Source: Octopus vulgaris (Eukaryota). Taken from it: a stretch of 64,000 nt of DNA. This document shows positions 2,342 through 61,419 of this stretch, piece by piece. The stretch covers positions 84,816,001 through 84,880,000 of the forward strand of contig OX597825.1 in NCBI GenBank assembly GCA_951406725.2, in the 5' to 3' direction. Below the pieces are notes generated by a model. It was not told the DNA's origin, did not search any database, and saw nothing but the letters and a program-made list of their open reading frames with translations. The number at the start of each line of letters is the position of its first letter. Position 1 is the stretch's first letter. The position numbers and the translations under genes are program-made.

Positions 2342-2682
2342 TGTGTGTATATGAATGTGTGTGTATGAGTGTGTGTATGTGTGTGTGCATTGGTGTAGGC
2401 ATGTGCATGTGTGTATGTGTGTTGTGCGCGCGTGTGTGTATCTTTGTGTCTTTCATTTGTCCTCCAGTACCGCACGACTGGCATTGGTTTGTTTATGTCC
2501 CCGTACAATAGCAGTGTTGCACAATACGCCGATAGAATAAATGAGGGGCAGAAGACATTCCTAAAGGTGGTGCCCCAGCATGACTGCAGTCTAATGACTA
2601 AGAAAACATTAAGATATTTATTTTATGCGCACGCACATAAATACACAGACATATTTCTCATATATAAAATAGTGCTAATAGT

Positions 2683-3080
2683 AATCATTTTTACCATAGG
2701 CACAAGGCCTGAAATTTGAGGGGAGAGGCGTTAGTCGATTACATCGACACCAGTATTTCACTGGTACTTAATTTTTTTCAATCACGAAAGGATGAAAGGC
2801 AAAGTCGACCTGGCAGAATTTGAACTCAGAACGTAGCAGCAGACGAAATACCTATTTCTTTATTACCCACAAGGGGCTAAACACAGAGGGGACAAACAAG
2901 GACAGACATTGGGATAGTGGATTACATCGCCCCTAGTACTCAATTGGCACTTGATTTATCGACCCCGAAAGGATGAAATTCGAAGTCGACGTCGGCGTAA
3001 TTTGAACTCAGACGTAGCGACGAGCGAAATACCGCTATGCATTTCGTTCAGCGTGCTAACGATTGTGCCAGCTCGCCGCC
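2683..3080 (-). mobile_element. tRNA-derived SINE family A, head-to-tail dimer
   Basis: Minus strand: GGCGGCGAGCTGGC..GTTAGC head, B-box-like GAGTTCAAAT, core GTCGACTTTGCCTTTCATCCTTTCG..GATAAA..AGTACC. Tail AAGAAATAG is fused at 2851/2852 to a second, 5'-less copy. Confidence 0.9.
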
Positions 3081-3097
3081 TTATTTTGCTAATAATA

Positions 3098-3280
3098 ATA
3101 ATCCTTTCTACGCTAGGCACAAAAGGCCTGAAATTTGGGGAATGGGAACTTGATTTATCGACCCCGAAAGGATGAAATTCGAAGTCGACGTCGGCGTAAT
3201 TTGAACTCAGAACGTAGCGACGAGCGAAATAGCGCTACGCATTTCGTTCAGCGTGCTAACGATTGTGCCAGCCTGCCGCC
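3098..3280 (-). mobile_element. SINE family A copy with internal deletion
   Basis: Same head and core as the 2683-3080 copy; 3148-3288 duplicates 2949-3088. Confidence 0.88.
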
Positions 3281-3792
3281 TTATTTTGTTCAGAGTAATA
3301 ATAAGAACAATAACGAAATATACAAAAATATGAATAAAAGAATTCAATGTATGTATGGATATACATATACAGGCGTGTATTGTGTATGTATATACATCTA
3401 CACGCATGTATTGTGCATGCATATACGTACACGATCAAGAGTGTATAACTGCATATTTAATCCAATCGTAAGTCAGTGGACAGATTGTCAAAACATACAT
3501 GAGTTGGAGATTATCTTTCTGTAGAAAAAGAGAAACTCGTGCGAAGAAGGCGGTGAGATGGAGGTGAGGAGAATGAGTGTGGGGGAGCATTAATGTGACA
3601 TGTAACTGTGACAGGGACATACGTGCACACACAAGCGCACACACATACATGCACACACACACGCATGCAAATACATATATTTGTATATGTCTTTATCGGA
3701 TTTATCCATGTATCACAATATCTTTTCAATCTTCCTCTGCTAGTTGAAAGTTAAAAAATCTGGACACATGTTCAGTAAGTATATATATACTC

Positions 3793-3871
<79 letters not shown>

Positions 3872-4236
3872 CATATGTTTGTGCATCTGTGTGTAGTCAA
3901 AATTTTTGTCAACCGATCTGGAATTCGTTGTTATTTATGTAAGTAGGTCTCCTCCTAACCTTGTCCTTTCCCGAGTAGAGTTTCCTGCGCAGAACTGTGA
4001 CCATATATGCCTATGCATGCAACTTATGTTCTTTGTCTATCTCCTCAACTTCTTGGTGATTTTAGGCATAATTATTCCAATGTGTCCATCTGTTCTAATT
4101 TAATTAAATTCTATGTATTTGTGCAGTTGAAGGTTGCTCTGTATTTTAAATTGATGTAATGGTTGCATTGTTCAATTAAATGGAGTTGCATGAAACGATC
4201 GTACTGCATTAACTCTGGATATCCTTGTTAGTTACT

Positions 4237-4281
<45 letters not shown>

Positions 4282-4405
4282 ACAATCAGAGAAAGCACTA
4301 TCCCTATAAGTGTTTGTTAACAATAATTCTGATACCAAAGCTTTCAACCGCAAAATAACATCAATTCCGTAAACAGGAGAAAATTAAAAAAACGTTTACC
4401 CTGCA

Positions 4406-4513
4406 ATTTCTTATACGATGCACCGTTTCGTCTACTGTTTAATGGTAAAACTAACCTGATTAAATTAAATCAAGCCAATCTTCCATAGGCCCTTAGATTC
4501 ATCAGTAAGAAAT
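4406..4513 (-). ncRNA. Type I hammerhead ribozyme (left-arm copy)
   Basis: Reverse complement of 4811-4918. Confidence 0.8.
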
Positions 4514-4810
4514 AGCCATATCGGAACAGATATTTTCACGAGGCATTTCTGTTGCTGCCTCGACAATATCTGACCTAAAATTTTCAAATCATCAGACTCG
4601 CGCCAAATTTATCGGCAGCAAATAAATATAAGCCGCCGATTCCATTATGGAATTAACCAGAAAATTCATAATTAATCAATATAGGGTGGCAAAAAATTTT
4701 GTAGAATTTTTTTGCCACCAGCGCGAGTCTGATGATTTGAAAATTTTAGGTCAGATATTGTCGAGGCAGCAACAGAAATGCCTCGTGAAAATATCTGTTC
4801 CGATATGGCT

Positions 4811-4918
4811 ATTTCTTACTGATGAATCTAAGGGCCTATGGAAGATTGGCTTGATTTAATTTAATCAGGTTAGTTTTACCATTAAACAGTAGACGAAACG
4901 GTGCATCGTATAAGAAAT
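4811..4918 (+). ncRNA. Type I hammerhead ribozyme
   Basis: Helix I ATTTCTTA(4811-18)/TAAGAAAT(4911-18); core CTGATGA 4819-25; helix II TCTA/TAGA with A.C at the closing position; GAAA 4895-98; helix III CGGT-GC-ATCG (near-palindromic); cleavage triplet GTA 4908-10. Confidence 0.8.
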
Positions 4919-5454
4919 TGCAGGGTAAACGTTTTTTTTAATTTTCTCCTGTTTACGGAATTGATGTTATTTTGCAGTTGAAAGCTGGCTGTTATTTCTA
5001 GTGGGTGAATGGCCTATTATGGCTGTTCCTTGATCGTGATGTTGAACTTATAAATGGTCTATGACTATTTAATTTTTTCCCGCTAGGCCGCTGGTGGCAA
5101 AAAAATTCTACAAAATTTTTTGCCACCCTATATTGATTAATTATATATATATATATGTACAATCAGAGAAAGCACTATCCCCATACGTGTTTGTTAACAA
5201 TAATTCTGATACCAACAGGGTTTAACCAAATATATTGATAGAAAGTTCCTCCATATTTATGTATAAACAGTGTCATAAAATTAAAAAGCCACTAAAAGAA
5301 AATGGAGAAGAAAACTTAAAGAAGACGATTGGTTCGTTTTACTTGTATCACAATTGGAAAAGTAATGTAAATTAAAAAGCTTGAATGATATACTTATAAG
5401 AAGAAGCGTAAAATAAAGTGCATCAACAAAACAACCCAAAAATATTTTAGAAGA

Positions 5455-5554
5455 AATTCTACATATGTTTCAATACAATATATTTGAATCATCAATAAGT
5501 GTAACTTTTATAGATGTAATGAGCGAAATATTGTCAGATCTCTTCAGGAGAAAT
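5455..5554 (-). ncRNA. Degenerate minimal type I hammerhead motif (PLE type)
   Basis: Minus strand: ATTTCTC-CTGAAGA-..ACAATAT...ATATTGT..-GAAAC-ATAT-GTA-GAAT. Core boxes intact; helix I and the base of helix II are damaged. Confidence 0.55.
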
Positions 5555-5809
5555 AAGTATATTCTCAGACTTGAGTTACGAAATGACTTATTTGAGGGAC
5601 ACGTTTAGAATTTTCAAATGTAAACAAACTACTTCGTAGGACGCAGAGTTTATGTGATTAGAAATGTATCATTTAAAATTTAGCTAATATTGAACGTTGA
5701 AATGATACTAATACATGAAATTTGTTTGAAAAATATATCTTTTATCATATTTAAATTTAAATTTACTTACACTTATAAATGTTTATGTGAGGGAGATGAT
5801 AGAAAGACA

Positions 5810-6125
5810 AATGTAATTATCATGAGGGATGTAATATACAAAGAATTATATTGGGAAATGTAAACAAAAATTGGATGAATAACATTGGTGTCATTTAAGA
5901 TTAAATTAGTTAGGATATAATTTCCGGTGTTCTAAGAAAAATATTTTGTATTTGAAATATATGGTATATATAAAAAAACGATATTGTGCTCACGAACTGC
6001 TACAGAAAAAATTTAGAAAAATGGTGTTAAAGGAAGATGATACAAATATAGCAAAACATGATATTTTCTAGAAGTCGTACAATGAAAAATATAACCTTGG
6101 GTCACGAAGGAATAAATTGGTTAGA
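5810..6125 (+). pseudogene. Penelope-like GIY-YIG endonuclease remnant
   Basis: Frameshifted fragments NVI..EGCN..KNYIGKCKQKL and terminal TLGHEGIN, resembling the PLE C-terminal TLxPxGLN motif. Confidence 0.45.
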
Positions 6126-6988: not shown

Positions 6989-8914
6989 CAACCAAACATC
7001 TGTGTTATTTTGACAAAGGTCAATGTTATATTTACAACATTATTTTAACTCCCATTCGTCAGAAATACTGTGAAGAATTTACTTGCTAAAACATTTTTAT
7101 CTAACTATTTGTTATATTTATTATCAGCAATATTTAATAATTGAATTATTCGTCTTGTTGCTGATGGAGTTGGTAGATTTTCAATGCAGTAATGATTTGT
7201 GATACCTTTGCTTCGTTTCTCATAGTTTAATAGGTTTCATCTACAATATCTGAGAATATGGTAAAGTAACAATGGAATGGGGTTAATGAAAAAAGAGGAA
7301 ATACGAAGCGAAAATATACCTAACATCTAATTGAGAAATGAGTAAAAGGAAATAATGCCAACAAATGACATCTGAATCAGGCGAAAAAAGGGAGAGAGTG
7401 AGAGAGAAAGAGAGGGGGAGGGAGAGAGATGGAAGTGACAGTGGTTTAGGGTAAAACATGTGTGAAAAGGAAAATACAACCCAAAAAGCAATAGAAAGCT
7501 GTAGACGGGGAGGAAACAAACGTGGACACGAAATACAAATAGTGAATGGTAGATGATGGTAACAAAGTAACGAAAATGAACGAAAAAGAACAAACAGAAA
7601 AAAAGATACGGAACTGAATAGAAAAAGAAGAAAACCGAATGGTAGTATGAATTTGTCTAAGAAACAGTAACATAAACCGTTCTGCAAATAATACTTGCGA
7701 CAGGGTATATAAAAAAATATATCGCAAAATATTGCCGTTATTTGACGTAGTTTTATTATAAAGAGGAAGTCAGAGACAGAAGGAAATAGACTACACTGCT
7801 TCAAGATGATAGAAACCTGAAGATCGATTTAGTTTCAATAATATTTTTCTTTCATTTTATAGTATTTTGTTTCATTTTTATTTTTTCTTCTCGTCATACA
7901 GATTCTGTAGATTCATCAAAAACTAAACAGTCCAACTTCTCGAAATATCTCTGGCTGCAATCTACAAATATCACAGAAATAACAACGAATATACAATACA
8001 AAGCCATGCAATAAACTATATCGTAGACAAATTTATAGATTCTATTTTCTTCCCCATTGGCCGCATACATAAAAAAATACGCAAACGCACGCAGTTTTGT
8101 TTATATGTATTTTTATATATTCATACATACATCTGTGCGTGCATGTGTTATGTTTGCGTAGCTTAATCCAGCGAGTTAATAAGGTCACAAATCCTTTATA
8201 TTTATGTATGAAACATTCAGTTTTGGGTTCTAAATACATTTGTCAGTCTTTTGTCGTAGAATTAAGTTCTTTAGTGCCATCTCAGTGAAAATACTTTAGA
8301 CGAATTTCGATATTTCATGTGAAGTACGTATTTCTACTATAAACACACTAACGCATATGCACATATACATTATTGCATGTACATACATAATATTTATACA
8401 TCAAACACTTTATTTATGAAAGAGGCAAAGCGAGAGAGAGCGAGAGGGAGAGAGAGAGGGAGGGAGAGAGAGAGAGAGATTATGGTGGAGTTTTGTCATT
8501 TATCGAATCTGACAAGATGAATGACTAAACTAACCACATCAGTATTTGATCTCAACTTCCAGAGAACCAGAACGATCTTCAGCCGCAAGTTAATATGTTC
8601 TGTTCTCTGATGGTTCTGCCAGTTCTATAGATGTATGATTCTTTTTTCTGTTTTTAATTATTAAAATTCTTCCTGTGAGGAAGCAACTGGTTTCTAACAA
8701 AGATTCAATGAATAATCGTTGGAATGAGGATAACAAAATGCTAAATATTAAACTTGAGAAATGTCTTGCAAACGTTTATTGTTCCAATTACAGATTAATA
8801 GTATTTGTAATGGTTGATTTGTTTCCTTGAAAACCTAGCCTATCCAGATTGTCACTTACTCACAAAACCAAACACACCAATTATTATTAGTATAAAAGCG
8901 AATATATAATCTGT

Positions 8915-10060: not shown

Positions 10061-10156
10061 AACTCAGAACGTGGCGACGGGCGGAATACATGCAATAATA
10101 TATATGTGCATATGCGTTAGTGTGTTTATAGTAGAAATACGCACTTCACATGAAAT

Positions 10157-25230: not shown

Positions 25231-26040
25231 ATATGTATATGTACGTATGTATATATATATATATATATATACATACTCATATATATATACACACATACAC
25301 ACACATGTATATATGTATAGATATATAAATGGATAGATAAATACATACATATACAAACACACACAAATATATTTATATATGCACTTGTAGATACATATGT
25401 GCATATATACCTATACACACACACACGCACTAATATTAATATATATACGTCTATAGATACACACACACACACACTAACACTTATCTCTATGTATGTATGT
25501 GTGTATATGAAATATATATGCGTCATTATGATGGATTTCGTTCGACGATTGCAAGCACGCATCCATATTGATTCGAAAAGATAGTCGGAGGTGGCTAACC
25601 CCAGCAAAACACACACACACATTGCAGTTCACTAAACAATACTATTACACGTTTCACTAACCTCATACATATGGATGCGTTATTGTGAACGAAGGAGAGT
25701 TCTTCGGTGTTTCCTCTTCTGTTTAATGTAACGTTCGAAGCAGTTTATTGTCTGTTAATATTTACAGAAATACAATTATTTCTTATCGACTTAAACTCTC
25801 TAGTTTATAAACTGTGAATAATACGATACATCTCTGTTTAATATCACGTAAAATCGCCAACATAATAGGTATTATTTTGTTCGTGTCGTAGTGACTATCA
25901 GAAGGCACTTATCATTAAATACGCATTTAAATTAGCAGAGAACAGATTCTTTTTCAAGGCGCCTATTTTCGCTTGAAATTGTTCTACTTCATCCTGGCCA
26001 TTCACTTGGTTAGCATGAAGTCAGTTACAAAGCTAATCCA

Positions 26041-26455
26041 CCTATTTCTTTACTACCCACAAGGGGCTAACACAGAAGGGACAAACGAGGACAGACAAAG
26101 AAATTAAGTCGATTACATCGACCCCAGTGTGTACCTGGTACTTATTCAATCGATCCCGAAAGAATGAAAGCAAAGTCGACCTCGGCGGAATTTGAACTCA
26201 GAACGTAGCGGCAGACGAAATACCTATTTCTTTACGACCCACAAGGAGCTAAACACAGAGAGTACAAACATAGACAGACGAACGGATTAAGTCGATTATA
26301 TCGACCCTAGTGCGTATCTGGTACTTAATTTATCGACCCCGAAAGGATGAAATGCAAAGTCGACCTCGGCGGAATTTGAAATCAGAACGTAGCGGCAGAC
26401 GAATTACTGCTAAGCATTTCGCCCGGCGTGCTAACGGTTCTGCCAGCTCGCAGCT
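26041..26455 (-). mobile_element. SINE family A dimer with 19-bp TSD
   Basis: Two cores, junction at 26223/26224; TTACAAAGCTAATCCACCT at 26025-43 and 26456-74. Confidence 0.93.
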
Positions 26456-26919
26456 TTACAAAGCTAATCCACCTCTACATTCTGTTGCAACTCTTTGGTT
26501 TTACTACCGCTACTACAACATCCTCTGTTCCACGAAATTTGCTATTACTGTGCTGTCTCTGGTCGATTCTCTTTCACTCAACACCCGTATTGTATTCAAC
26601 CAATACGTCCATCCTTCTTTCCCGCGCAGACTATTTTGGTCTCGCACTCGTTTCAAAACAACGTCGTGGGTATCTATGTCACCGATGTCACGGTGTCGGC
26701 GAAGGCCATCAAACGGATACAACCTCCAGACAAAAGTATTAACGATCATTCGATACTAATAACTTTGCCTGATCCGATAAATTCGATCTCTGTCTATGTG
26801 AAAATCTCTTTTTAAATGACATTTAGATAATTTTATCAATCAAGGTAACCAAGCGGTGTCTCGATCGCGACATTCTCAGTTTTCTGACCAACCAGTTACG
26901 TTAACATATTTTTGTTTAG

Positions 26920-45962: not shown

Positions 45963-46218
45963 AACACACACACATACATACACACACACACACTTATCTG
46001 CTTGTGACTGCGTGCCTTTTGCTTTTCTCCGTCACCGCTTGACAGCCGGTGTTGCTTTCTTTACATCCCCGTAACTTAATATGTCAGAAAAAAACTATAA
46101 AAATATGTACCATAGAAGAAACTATAGAGACTACTATAGAAGAAACTATAGAATATGTACTAGTGCACACACACAAACACACACAGATCTATATGTATAT
46201 ATACACTCGCACATATAT

Positions 46219-46473
46219 ATTCTTTTCTACTCTAGTCACAAGTCCCGAAACTTTGGGGTGCTGGGCTAGTTGATTAGATCGACCCCGGTGCGTAATTTGT
46301 ACTTATTTAGTCGACCACGAAAGGATGAACGGCAAAGTCGACCTCGGCGAAATTTGATCTCAGAACGTAGCGACAGACGAAATACGGCTACGCATTTCGC
46401 CCGGTGTGCTAACGTTTCTGCCAGCTCGCCGCCTTACTCACACATACACGCACACACACACACGCATACACAC

Positions 46474-46516
<43 letters not shown>

Positions 46517-46763
46517 CACATATATATATATATTAAAAGGCGGCGAGCTGGCAGAATCGTTAGCACGCCAGGCGAAATACGTAGCCGTATTTCGTCTGTC
46601 TACATGTTCTGAGTTCAAATTTCGCCGAGGTCGACTTTGCCTTTCATCCTTTCGGGGTCGATAAATAAAGTAGCAGTTACGCACTGGGGTCAATGTAATC
46701 GACTTAATCCCTGTCTTCGTTTGTCCCCTCTATGTTTAGCTTCTTGTGGGCAATAAAGAAATA
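46219..46763. mobile_element. Head-to-head pair of SINE A copies (46219-46433 minus, 46539-46763 plus)
   Basis: Both begin GGCGGCGAGCTGGCAGAA; the ~105-bp spacer is CA/TA microsatellite. Confidence 0.92.
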
Positions 46764-48950: not shown

Positions 48951-49010
48951 GCCCGTCTGCTTTTCTTAAAGGTAGAGTTCCGCTATCATCTCAATGTTCC
49001 TAGAAACCAA

Positions 49011-49410
49011 GGCAGCGCGCTGGCAGAATCGTTAGCACGCCGGGCGAAATGCTTTGCGGTATTTCGTCTCCCGCTACGTTCTGAGTTCAAATTCCACCGA
49101 GGTCGACTTTGCCTTTCATCCTTTCGGGATCAATTAAATAAGTACCAGTTACGTACTGGGGTCGATGTAATCGACTTAATCCGTTTGTCTGTCCTTGTTT
49201 GTCCCCTCTGTGTTTAGCCCCTTGTCGGTAGTAAAGAAATAGAAATAGGTATTTCGTCTGTCTTTACATTCTAGGTTCAAATTCTTCTGAGGTCGACTTT
49301 GCCTTTCAACATTTCGGGGTCGATAAATTAAGTACCAGTTGCGTACTAGGGTCGATGTAATTGACTGGCCCCTTCCCCGAAAATCTCGGGCCTTGTGTAG
49401 AAATAATATT
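49011..49410 (+). mobile_element. SINE family A dimer
   Basis: Head, long tail ending GAAATAG, junction at 49248/49249, second core, short tail. Confidence 0.92.
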
Positions 49411-49934: not shown

Positions 49935-50050
49935 ATATACTTTATTTAAAGCAGCAGAAAATTCAACAAAACCTGTTACTCTGAGTTTCACGTTGCCGGC
50001 AACGTGAAACAGGTTTTGTTGAATTTTCTGCTGCTTTAAATAAAGTATAT
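49935..50050. repeat. Spacer-less fold-back palindrome
   Basis: Arms 49935-49997 and 49998-50050, centred on GCC|GGC; the right arm lacks 10 nt. Confidence 0.95.
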
Positions 50051-55119: not shown

Positions 55120-56680
55120 ACGGCTTAATAACTCCAGAAGAGGTAACCATCGATTACGTCAACATAACAGAAGTGGATGCAATATTGGCCATTGATGAAA
55201 TGAGATCAAACTAAGCAACAGGTCCACATTGACTCCTGGCTGTTGTCTTAAAGACATGTAAAAAGGCTCTTGCGAAGCCACTGCAGATACTCTTTCAGAA
55301 TTTCCTTGCACGTGGCAAACTACCCAACATGCTAAAAGAGGGTATAATATGCCCTGTCCATAAAGGAGGGAACGGAGCAATGCTAAAACTAGAGGCCCAT
55401 CTCTCTGACATCAGCAAGACAATGTATCGAATTGTCAGAAAAAGGCTGATCACGTTCCTAGCAGAAAACTCCGTCCAGGGAGGAACTGCCTCACACAGTT
55501 GCTGCAGCACTTTGACCGGGTACTGAAACAACAGCTAAACCACTCAGCTGTAGACGTGATATATCTTGACTATGCCAAGGATTTGGACAAGATTGATATG
55601 TCACAAGCTGCAAAATCTTGGTATTACCGGGAAACTGGAAGCGTGGGTGCACGATTTTCTGCAGGGCAGGAGTCAGACAGTTGTAGGCAATTGTTCTCAC
55701 TCTGAAGAAACATCAATTATCAGCGGAGTCCCACAGGGAAATTATACTGGGGCCACTATTATTTGTGGTGGCCCTGTCAGACATGCCCTCTGCGGTACAG
55801 TCAGCCAATCTGACCAGTTATGCTGACGACACAAAAGTAACGCAGGCAGTTAGGAACCGAGAGGACAACATAAAACTGCAGAAAGATCTGAACGAAATCT
55901 ACAAATGCGCTAACAAAAATAATATGTAGTTGAATGCTATGAAATTTCAGGCACTCCACTATTGGTCCAACAAAAGGCTAAAATCAGAATACATTAGTCC
56001 AGAAGGTAATATGATCCCAGACTCAGAGTCGGTGTGTGACCTGGAGGTTTACATGAGCAGTGATGCAACATTCCATGTACATATTACCATGATGGCAACA
56101 TTGTGCAAGTAAGTGGCTTGATGCATTCTGAGGACATTCAGAACGAGGGAAAGGGAGGCCCTGCTACTCCTATGGAGCACTTTCCTTTTAAGCCGCTTGG
56201 ACTACTGCGCCCAACTATGGTCCCCAGAGACTGTGACACAAACTGTGGAACTCGAAGCAATCCAGCACCAATACACAAAGAAGATTGACTTAATGCAAAA
56301 GATCGGCTGCTGGGAGAGGCTAAAGGAGCTGAGTCTCTATTCCCTGAAGAGAAAACAAGAGTGATATGCGGTGATATATATTTGGAACATTTTGGAGGGT
56401 TTAGTTACCAATTTTGGAATTGGCAGCTATACCAATCCTCGAACTGGACGGCACTGCACCATGCCAAAGATCCCGTCTTCTAAAATAAAACTGCAATAGT
56501 CTGGCTTTGAAGGGCCTGCAAGTGTTCAACATTCTTCTGGGCAACCTTAGAGATCTACATTGTGTTGATTTTAAGGAACGTCTGGACATGTTTCTATCTG
56601 AAATACCAGACGAACCCACATCGCTGCAGAGAGACGCAAAAAAGAGCAGCTCCGTCCAACTCACTGCTTCAGCATAAACT
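55120..56680 (+). mobile_element. 5'-truncated, decayed CR1/L2-group LINE (ORF2 reverse transcriptase)
   Basis: LKTCKKALAKPLQILF..IICPVHKGG, VDVIYLDYAK, SGVPQG, LGPLLF, YADD (55819-30), SRLDYCAQLWSP, LEAIQ; multiple stops and frameshifts. Confidence 0.95.
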
Positions 56681-60689: not shown

Positions 60690-61037
60690 ATTTTAGATGG
60701 GGAAGACGGGATCTTTGGTATGACGCAGTGCCGTCCACTTCAAGGATTGGTATGGCAGCCAATTCCAAAAATGGGAACTAAACCCTCTAAAATGTTCCAA
60801 ATATATATCACCGCATATCTCTCTCGTCTTTTCTCCAGGGAATAGAGACTCAGCTCCTTTAGCCTCTCCCAATTGCCCATCTTTTGCATCGAGTCATTCT
60901 CCTTTGTGCATTGGCGCTGGATTGCTTCGAGTTCCACAGTTTGTGTCACACTCTCTGGGGACCATAGTTGGGAGCAGTAGTCCAAGCCGTTTAGAGAGAA
61001 AGTCTTCCATAGGAGTAGCAGGGCCTCCCTTTCCTTG
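60690..61037 (-). mobile_element. Fragment of the same LINE family as 55120-56680, nested in a SINE B (60530-61215)
   Basis: EREALLLLW..LDYCSQLWSP..LEAIQR..LYSLEKRRERY matches 56145-56490. Confidence 0.92.
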
Positions 61038-61419
61038 GTTGTCGAGCGGTGGTGTCGAGAAACATATATACAAAGATACACACACACACACACGGACCTC
61101 CATAAATTTCCGTCTACCAAATCTTGTCACGAGGCTGTGGTCGGTCCGTAGACACGTACTCAGAGGGACCAAACCCGGTGCGATGTGGTTAGAAGCAAGC
61201 GTCTTACTACACAGTCAAGCTTGATCTTATATCTATATATCAATATGTGTGCGTATATGTGGGCGTGTGTGCGTGAGTGTGTGTGCGTGTGTGTGTGTGT
61301 GTGTGCGTGTGTGTGTATATATACATATATATTCAAACCGATTTTGTTCGTGTACGTGATGTTGATAAGCCACAAGAATAGCGAAAAATCGATGTCCATC
61401 AACTGTGAATGGGATTCGG

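Follow-up and report, generated by a model that had tools for sequence, protein, structure and literature searches.

An inverted element with a predicted ribozyme in octopus DNA that resembles a retrozyme moved by a Penelope-like element

The window considered here, a 64-kb stretch of microsatellite-rich, non-coding animal DNA, contains a two-armed inverted element that, judging from the sequence, resembles animal non-LTR retrozymes, with a Penelope-like element as the likely carrier. None of the family-level retrozyme features that we tested failed. We posit that it is quite probably a retrozyme-type non-autonomous element, likely inserted via two-ended target-primed copying by a Penelope-like reverse transcriptase-endonuclease. 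The class of the element, its Penelope-like link and head-to-head Penelope insertions are already published; the departures from the published cases are a long target duplication, an offset of 158 nt between the starts of the two arms, and the permutation of the arms relative to each other. The accessible literature leaves open both how Penelope-like elements come to insert in inverted or tandem form and what enzyme mobilizes animal retrozymes. With a short template whose ends are marked, the insertion mechanism becomes testable, start points, the distance to the second nick and junction microhomology all being countable over hundreds of copies.

The element is built of four segments, B, Y, C and X, distributed over two arms that meet head to head at a GCG common to both (Table 1). 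The initial annotation had read the plus strand as B-Y-C and the minus strand as C-X-B with a 3-nt overlap of the two halves; realignment reproduces the overlap and finds the map, with arms of 424 and 385 nt, correct to the base. A self-comparison of the sequence recovers the same inverted arms. These are 99% identical to each other and differ at two sites: the 266-nt B of the right arm differs from the reverse complement of the 265-nt B of the left arm by one substitution (4976) and one indel in a T-run, and the C segments match at 56 of 56 letters. The sum by which the annotation arrived at a unit of 488 nt (266 + 102 + 56 + 64) stands, but the length itself has to be revised to about 490 nt, because 488 depends on using the B|Y joint of the right arm, which is 2 nt shorter than that of the left arm and of several other copies in the family contigs. 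Elsewhere in the window there is no further copy of the unit, and no LTR layout is visible in the segment map of the element. Two consecutive units with complete hammerheads are absent at the locus, where both arms fall short of a unit and carry their ribozymes on opposite strands.

Table 1. Coordinates of the inverted element and its flanks in the window
Feature	Position	Strand	Basis
Target microsatellite, left, (TA)9 then (TG)12	4237..4278	+	repeat scan
Left T copy, likely target-site duplication	4279..4338	+	self-comparison
Left arm C-X-B, 385 nt	4339..4723	-	segment alignment
B copy, left arm, 265 nt	4339..4603	-	self-comparison and segment alignment
Type I hammerhead pattern, left arm; core start 4505, predicted cut 4414	4406..4513	-	pattern scan
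Segment X, 64 nt, left arm only	4604..4667	-	X-to-B and C-to-X continuity in other copies
C copy, left arm, 56 nt	4668..4723	-	self-comparison and segment alignment
3-nt overlap joining the 5' ends of the arms head to head	4721..4723	no strand	segment alignment
Right arm B-Y-C, 424 nt	4721..5144	+	segment alignment
B copy, right arm, 266 nt	4721..4986	+	segment alignment
Type I hammerhead pattern, right arm; predicted cut after 4910	4811..4918	+	pattern scan and folding
Segment Y, 102 nt, right arm only	4987..5088	+	Y-to-C continuity in other copies
Segment C, 56 nt; its end is the recurring family 3' end adjoining (AT)n	5089..5144	+	family contigs
(AT)n tract, right junction	5145..5155	+	repeat scan
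Right T copy, running on into flank; low-depth, outside the repeat family	5156..5215	+	alignment and depth

A scan of both strands of the window for the hammerhead pattern returns two matches in total, one per arm, and in 50 dinucleotide shuffles the count was zero when a stem I of 8 bp was required and averaged 0.16 when 5 bp sufficed. In the right arm, stem I pairs 4811–4818 with 4911–4918 (8 bp), CUGAUGA and GAAA lie at 4819–4825 and 4895–4898, respectively, and cutting is predicted after A4910; the left-arm version is its mirror copy, running from 4505 to 4414. Stem II consists of four pairs over an A·C mismatch with a long hairpin on top. The mismatched closing pair, A4826·C4894, is found in both arms, and across the family contigs described below U takes up 91% (run X1), 51% (X2), 100% (X16) and 13% (X15) of the depth at 4894, restoring an A-U pair, with C being a real minority form. 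A further pair of changes, T>C at 4814 and A>G at 4915, would convert one stem I pair from U-A to C-G: these reach 14% and 27% in X2 and 31% and 33% in X15 and are rare in X1, as read position by position rather than on one contig. In X16, G at 4915 stands at 11% without C at 4814. At the level of the pattern, the variants in the family contigs keep stems I and II.

Stem III is short and self-complementary; it is barely stable by itself (-0.2 kcal/mol) and pairs with a second copy of itself over 12 bp at -17.5 kcal/mol. For the unit as a whole, adopting the predicted active ribozyme fold costs 3.6 kcal/mol relative to the minimum. Low stability of a self-complementary stem III is described for the dimer-type hammerheads of tandem units (PMC4209133), and that of the predicted ribozyme here appears to be of the same design as in these dimer-acting versions. 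As a separate observation, the consensus tail of a loose end at 4876 in run X16 shows a variant of stem III in the form of a perfect 10-nt palindrome, possibly a compensatory change, which may rest on one contig. At the gathering score Rfam matched nothing in the window, and its 16 weaker matches included no hammerhead family; the miss may be due to the 69-nt stem II region. These weaker matches, to models of miRNAs and other hairpins, were rejected as a product of the inverted arms. An exact 22-nt motif from the ribozyme has no match in metagenome contigs or in viral contigs.

The unit has a GC content of 35.9%, below the 45–50% used as a retrozyme criterion. The ribozyme strand has no ATG frame longer than 25 aa and the opposite strand none longer than 55 aa, the longest stop-free stretch amounts to 47–60 codons with no remnant of an ORF, and neither a reverse transcriptase nor a GIY-YIG ORF is found in it. 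Among the 68 stop-free frames of at least 110 aa in the window, the 14 least microsatellite-like were compared with Pfam and none matched either domain. When folded as a circle, the unit is more stable than expected from its composition (z of -5.35, with none of 40 shuffles as stable), and the opposite strand also folds well (z of -4.33). These results bear out several earlier claims: the unit does carry one type I hammerhead pattern, it lacks coding capacity, and the hairpins that had been named in B, C and X appear in the fold. No Penelope-like ORF is attached to it at the locus or was found among the 14 frames tested.

Part of the stretch is contained in 20 of 24 listed public runs, covering seven organism codes. 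Contigs were aligned from six of the 24 (X1, X2, X3, X8, X15 and X16), with runs X17–X24 having a small or zero share. The alignment over 4604–5088 comprises 3197, 9978, 58 and 100 contigs from X1, X2, X15 and X16, respectively, and that over 5040–5700 comprises 1374, 3631, 252 and 726 contigs from X1, X2, X3 and X8. Runs X15 and X16 are putative RNA, and the family pieces in them were not counted as transcription. No run recorded as RNA is listed as containing the stretch, which carries no information on expression. Crude depth ratios place the copy number between a floor of about 50–200 and a ceiling of 3000–6000, depth being no true copy number; the unit thus belongs to a high-copy, non-coding animal repeat family.

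Each of the four junctions in the ~488-nt cycle is found again in other copies, on short contigs, and no fixed 5' end is seen. The X-to-B joint is crossed by 14 of 3197 contigs in X1, 19 of 9978 in X2, 1 of 58 in X15 and 2 of 100 in X16, the shorter side reaching 38–40 nt; it alone passes a rule of 31 letters on each side, with B|Y, Y|C and C|X being read on shorter overlaps. Loose ends extending past the start of C read as Y in 28, 58, 1 and 3 contigs (X1, X2, X15 and X16), and C continues into X in 8 (X1), 17 (X2) and 2 (X3) contigs, with no entry for X8. At X|B, Y|C and C|X, the loose ends match the next segment of the cycle with an agreement of 0.93–1.0. That B precedes Y is seen from loose ends corresponding to the end of B in 13 contigs of X1 and one each of X15 and X16, with small indels at the joint; in X2, this joint is heterogeneous, its 44–45 loose ends including a further short variant and agreeing only at 0.74–0.78. 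C is instead followed by (AT)n and then by mixed flanks in 8, 22, 4 and 17 contigs of X1, X2, X3 and X8. The initial annotation had proposed looking for other copies with Y-C and C-X-B continuity, and such copies are indeed present at the level of short contigs. The longest contig piece listed on the unit is 199 nt, which is too short for two ribozymes; among the contigs listed, none spans the whole unit or two tandem ribozymes, and none crosses the inversion or the left junction specific to this locus. The letter at 4976 of the right arm was not found in the aligned X1 contigs. A loose end at 5048 in run X3 offers a side observation, in that one contig seems to join the first hairpin of B nearly directly to the middle of Y, possibly a shorter variant without the ribozyme.

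Within the rows listed, which are part of the total, the family is accordingly closed on itself, its copies repeatedly ending at C next to AT microsatellites, with no large branch leading elsewhere; a rare autonomous partner would escape detection. The share of contigs running on into unlike DNA is 0, 0, 0.03 and 0 in X1, X2, X15 and X16, and since the loose ends continue the cycle and almost no contigs enter unlike DNA, an ORF-bearing form of the family would be a small minority. These observations weigh on the alternative that the unit represents the pseudo-LTR ends or stubs of a Penelope-like element collapsed by deletion of its ORF, with the cycle closing only at the deletion joint and with no separate life cycle of a monomer RNA. 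Such a history would draw on features that are ordinary for Penelope-like elements, namely ends inverted head to head, internal deletions at microhomologies and AT-rich targets (PMC3846280, PMC8557442), as well as on the match of Xenopus retrozymes to pseudo-LTRs (10.64898/2026.07.22.740005); the variable B|Y joint and the lack of a tandem ribozyme pair among the listed contigs of up to 199 nt also suit it. We nevertheless regard it as unlikely, given the regular continuation of the cycle at the other three joints, the near-absence of contigs entering unlike DNA and the lack of any ORF remnant in the unit. An origin by deletion is in itself compatible with the retrozyme-type reading, from which the collapsed-element history differs only by denying an independent amplification of the unit.

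Head-to-head arrangement appears to extend beyond this locus. Within 4604–5088, the part up to 4723 is antisense and that from 4721 sense, so that a contig skipping from the first to the second part marks a head-to-head joint. Fourteen of the 15 joints listed (with 12 more beyond these) are of this kind, each being a single X2 contig that passes from antisense (4624–4713) to sense (4776–5046). They occur at differing positions with depths of 97–727, and three have 2–3 shared letters; their sides are 20–28 nt at 85% likeness, the software flags them as doubtful, and those near A and T runs may be mapping noise. They offer moderate support for head-to-head insertion with variable 5' ends across the family. 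Together with the description of head-to-head copies as the usual product of Penelope-like insertion (PMC3846280), these many, if doubtful, joints from one run make it improbable that a one-armed or tandem copy was inserted first and that repair or fold-back replication later inverted a part of it and duplicated the flank. The left junction also agrees with the family's B|Y letters over 4 nt, as priming would leave, even though the 3-nt microhomology, the long duplication and the unequal copies of the flanking repeat would suit repair too and the unit is rich in hairpins. Still less probable, indeed very much so, is an artefact of assembly or of a fold-back read: the near-identity of the arms would fit it, as would the fact that none of the listed contigs reaches across the junctions specific to this locus, but a fold-back is a plain mirror image, which cannot place X in one arm and Y in the other, each in its family context, nor does it explain a direct repeat outside the arms or the two sites at which the arms differ.

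That direct repeat, T, is 60 nt long, with its two copies 58/60 identical and each preceded by (TA)n. The depth on its middle (5178–5200) is 0, 105.6, 0 and 16.4 in X1, X2, X3 and X8, whereas Y and C have 1e4 to 3e6, from which it follows that T is host DNA. T is thus likely a target-site duplication; its assignment to the element was rejected on this low depth. The two copies carry more differences than the arms do, namely substitutions at two of the 60 positions (P = 0.067) and a (TG)12 tract; both the tract and the two substitutions are confined to the left copy, without a counterpart in the right one. In X2, T is covered by a single contig, which agrees with the right copy apart from one letter in 100; contigs of the left type are absent from X1 and X2, which reflects a coverage gap and does not establish an empty site. 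The final 4 nt of the left T are complementary to a UUGG found directly after B in several contigs of the family, possibly a microhomology used in priming.

Several features of the arms bear on the template. Both carry letters that are rare in the family, those at 4805, 4920 and 4930 holding 0.1–4.7% of the summed depth in X1 and X2, which suggests that both arose from one RNA species in one event. Both also pass the ribozyme cut site unbroken, implying that the template was either a ligated circle or an uncut longer transcript. The arms start 76 and 234 nt past the cut site, the left one 158 nt upstream of the right. Since neither exceeds one unit and both could have been copied from a linear C-X-B-Y-C RNA of 544 nt, the locus does not prove a circle. 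We would favor the circle by a narrow margin, only because circular RNAs predominate among mussel retrozymes (PMC7229834). Unprocessed RNA is reported as the main substrate of a purified Penelope-like protein in vitro, and ribozyme cutting as unnecessary for insertion there (PMC11167929); eight of nine Xenopus retrozyme dimers showed no cutting in vitro (10.64898/2026.07.22.740005).

Under the retrozyme-type reading, a source copy would yield an RNA with an intact ribozyme site, be it a monomer ligated into a circle or a head-to-tail transcript left uncut. The endonuclease would then nick the bottom strand within (TA)n, and the first copying would start inside the RNA at the C end, extending 424 nt through C, Y and B and across the cut site; C ends next to (AT)n, corresponding to this proposed start, are seen in the family contigs. 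A top-strand nick at least 60 nt to the right would leave an end that could pair with the 4 nt just past B, and a second copy from that end would run 385 nt through B, X and C. The two cDNA ends would finally meet via the 3-nt microhomology, a junction that is itself observed in the sequence, with fill-in duplicating the target. A left start at the T/B microhomology, a right start at C/(AT)n and a 3-nt join form the trace that two-ended target-primed reverse transcription would be expected to leave. A Penelope-like enzyme would be the inserting agent. In work with a purified protein of this kind, both strands of AT-rich DNA were cut and extended and copying began within the RNA; the protein is a predicted dimer (PMC11167929). 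An older model for head-to-head joints invokes self-priming on an antisense template (PMC3846280), and the junction of the arms here is without a long palindrome. The inserted copy is likely inactive and would be a dead end, because its arms are shorter than one unit, its ribozymes are oppositely oriented, and its transcript would fold back on itself; the computed transcript through both arms folds into one long duplex.

A bolder and more doubtful reading is that a single ligated RNA circle was copied from two internal starts by a dimeric Penelope-like enzyme with nicks at least 60 nt apart, the first start being fixed at the C end on (TA)n and the second set by chance microhomology. If true, such loci would be a genomic record of animal ribozyme circles written back into DNA, a step that the available literature on retrozymes and Penelope-like elements proposes but has not demonstrated.

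The element can be placed among several known systems. It shares with the animal non-LTR retrozymes (PMC7229834) a short, non-coding, low-GC unit with many copies and a stable fold, one type I hammerhead per unit (here predicted at the level of the pattern) and a target duplication of more than 4 bp (here the 60-nt repeat of low-depth DNA). It differs from them in the length of the unit, which is 170–400 nt there and ~490 nt here, in the long hairpin on stem II, and in the arrangement, which is tandem there whereas this copy has two sub-unit arms; circles and cutting are demonstrated for those retrozymes, while the element here is known from its sequence. Penelope-like elements have been proposed as retrozyme carriers (Cervera and de la Pena 2020, PMC7229834), and the word "inverted" does not occur in the available text of that paper. 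More recently, vertebrate retrozymes were described as non-autonomous Penelope-like derivatives on the basis of co-occurrence and pseudo-LTR similarity (Li, Clavereau and Pollet 2026, 10.64898/2026.07.22.740005). The unit of ~490 nt falls within their range of 51–972 bp, and the proposed dependence on Penelope-like elements and the commonness of monomers and partial copies are likewise shared; however, an "active" copy in that study needs two consecutive ribozyme units, which the locus lacks. In the available text of that study, no mollusc appears among the sampled classes listed and insertion junctions are not analyzed.

Published accounts of Penelope-like elements include copies inverted head to head, insertion at (TA)n and non-autonomous derivatives arranged head to tail (PMC8557442, PMC3846280). 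The element resembles their insertions in having a head-to-head inverted 5' copy with a short overlap, a recurring internal 3' end and an AT-rich or (TA)n target (PMC3846280, PMC8557442, PMC11167929), and further in its type I hammerhead with a weak self-complementary stem III (PMC4209133). Unlike the endonuclease-bearing versions, it has no reverse transcriptase or GIY-YIG ORF; moreover, the duplications are 8–10 bp there as compared to at least 60 nt here, and a 30–40-bp tail there contrasts with arm starts 158 nt apart here (PMC3846280, PMC8557442). The arms are also different permutations of one closed unit, in contrast to Penelope-like insertions. Our literature search, outside of which lay supplements, Repbase and Dfam, found nothing on cephalopod retrozymes or two-armed retrozyme insertions; PMC10886601 contains both "retrozyme" and "octopus".

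The window holds some further structures of note. At 49935–50050 there is a short, unrelated head-to-head fold-back, with a self-match of 83% over 121 nt, a perfect central palindrome and a right end leading into (TA)n; it has no match to the hammerhead pattern and looks like a second Penelope-type stub. The stop-free frame at 60740–61126 on the minus strand had no match in Pfam; we take it to read like the C-terminal end of a LINE protein, and a stretch near 56142–56480 is similar to it. An inverted pair, 8312–8381 and 10087–10156, consists of 70-nt copies that are 97% alike and 1.7 kb apart, the right one ending at (TA)n. Finally, a dispersed SINE-like repeat, presumably of a type typical of octopus genomes, has many copies in the window (2626–3302, 26040–26459, 46164–46763, 49009–49410 and others), including a 200-nt tandem pair at 2942–3302.
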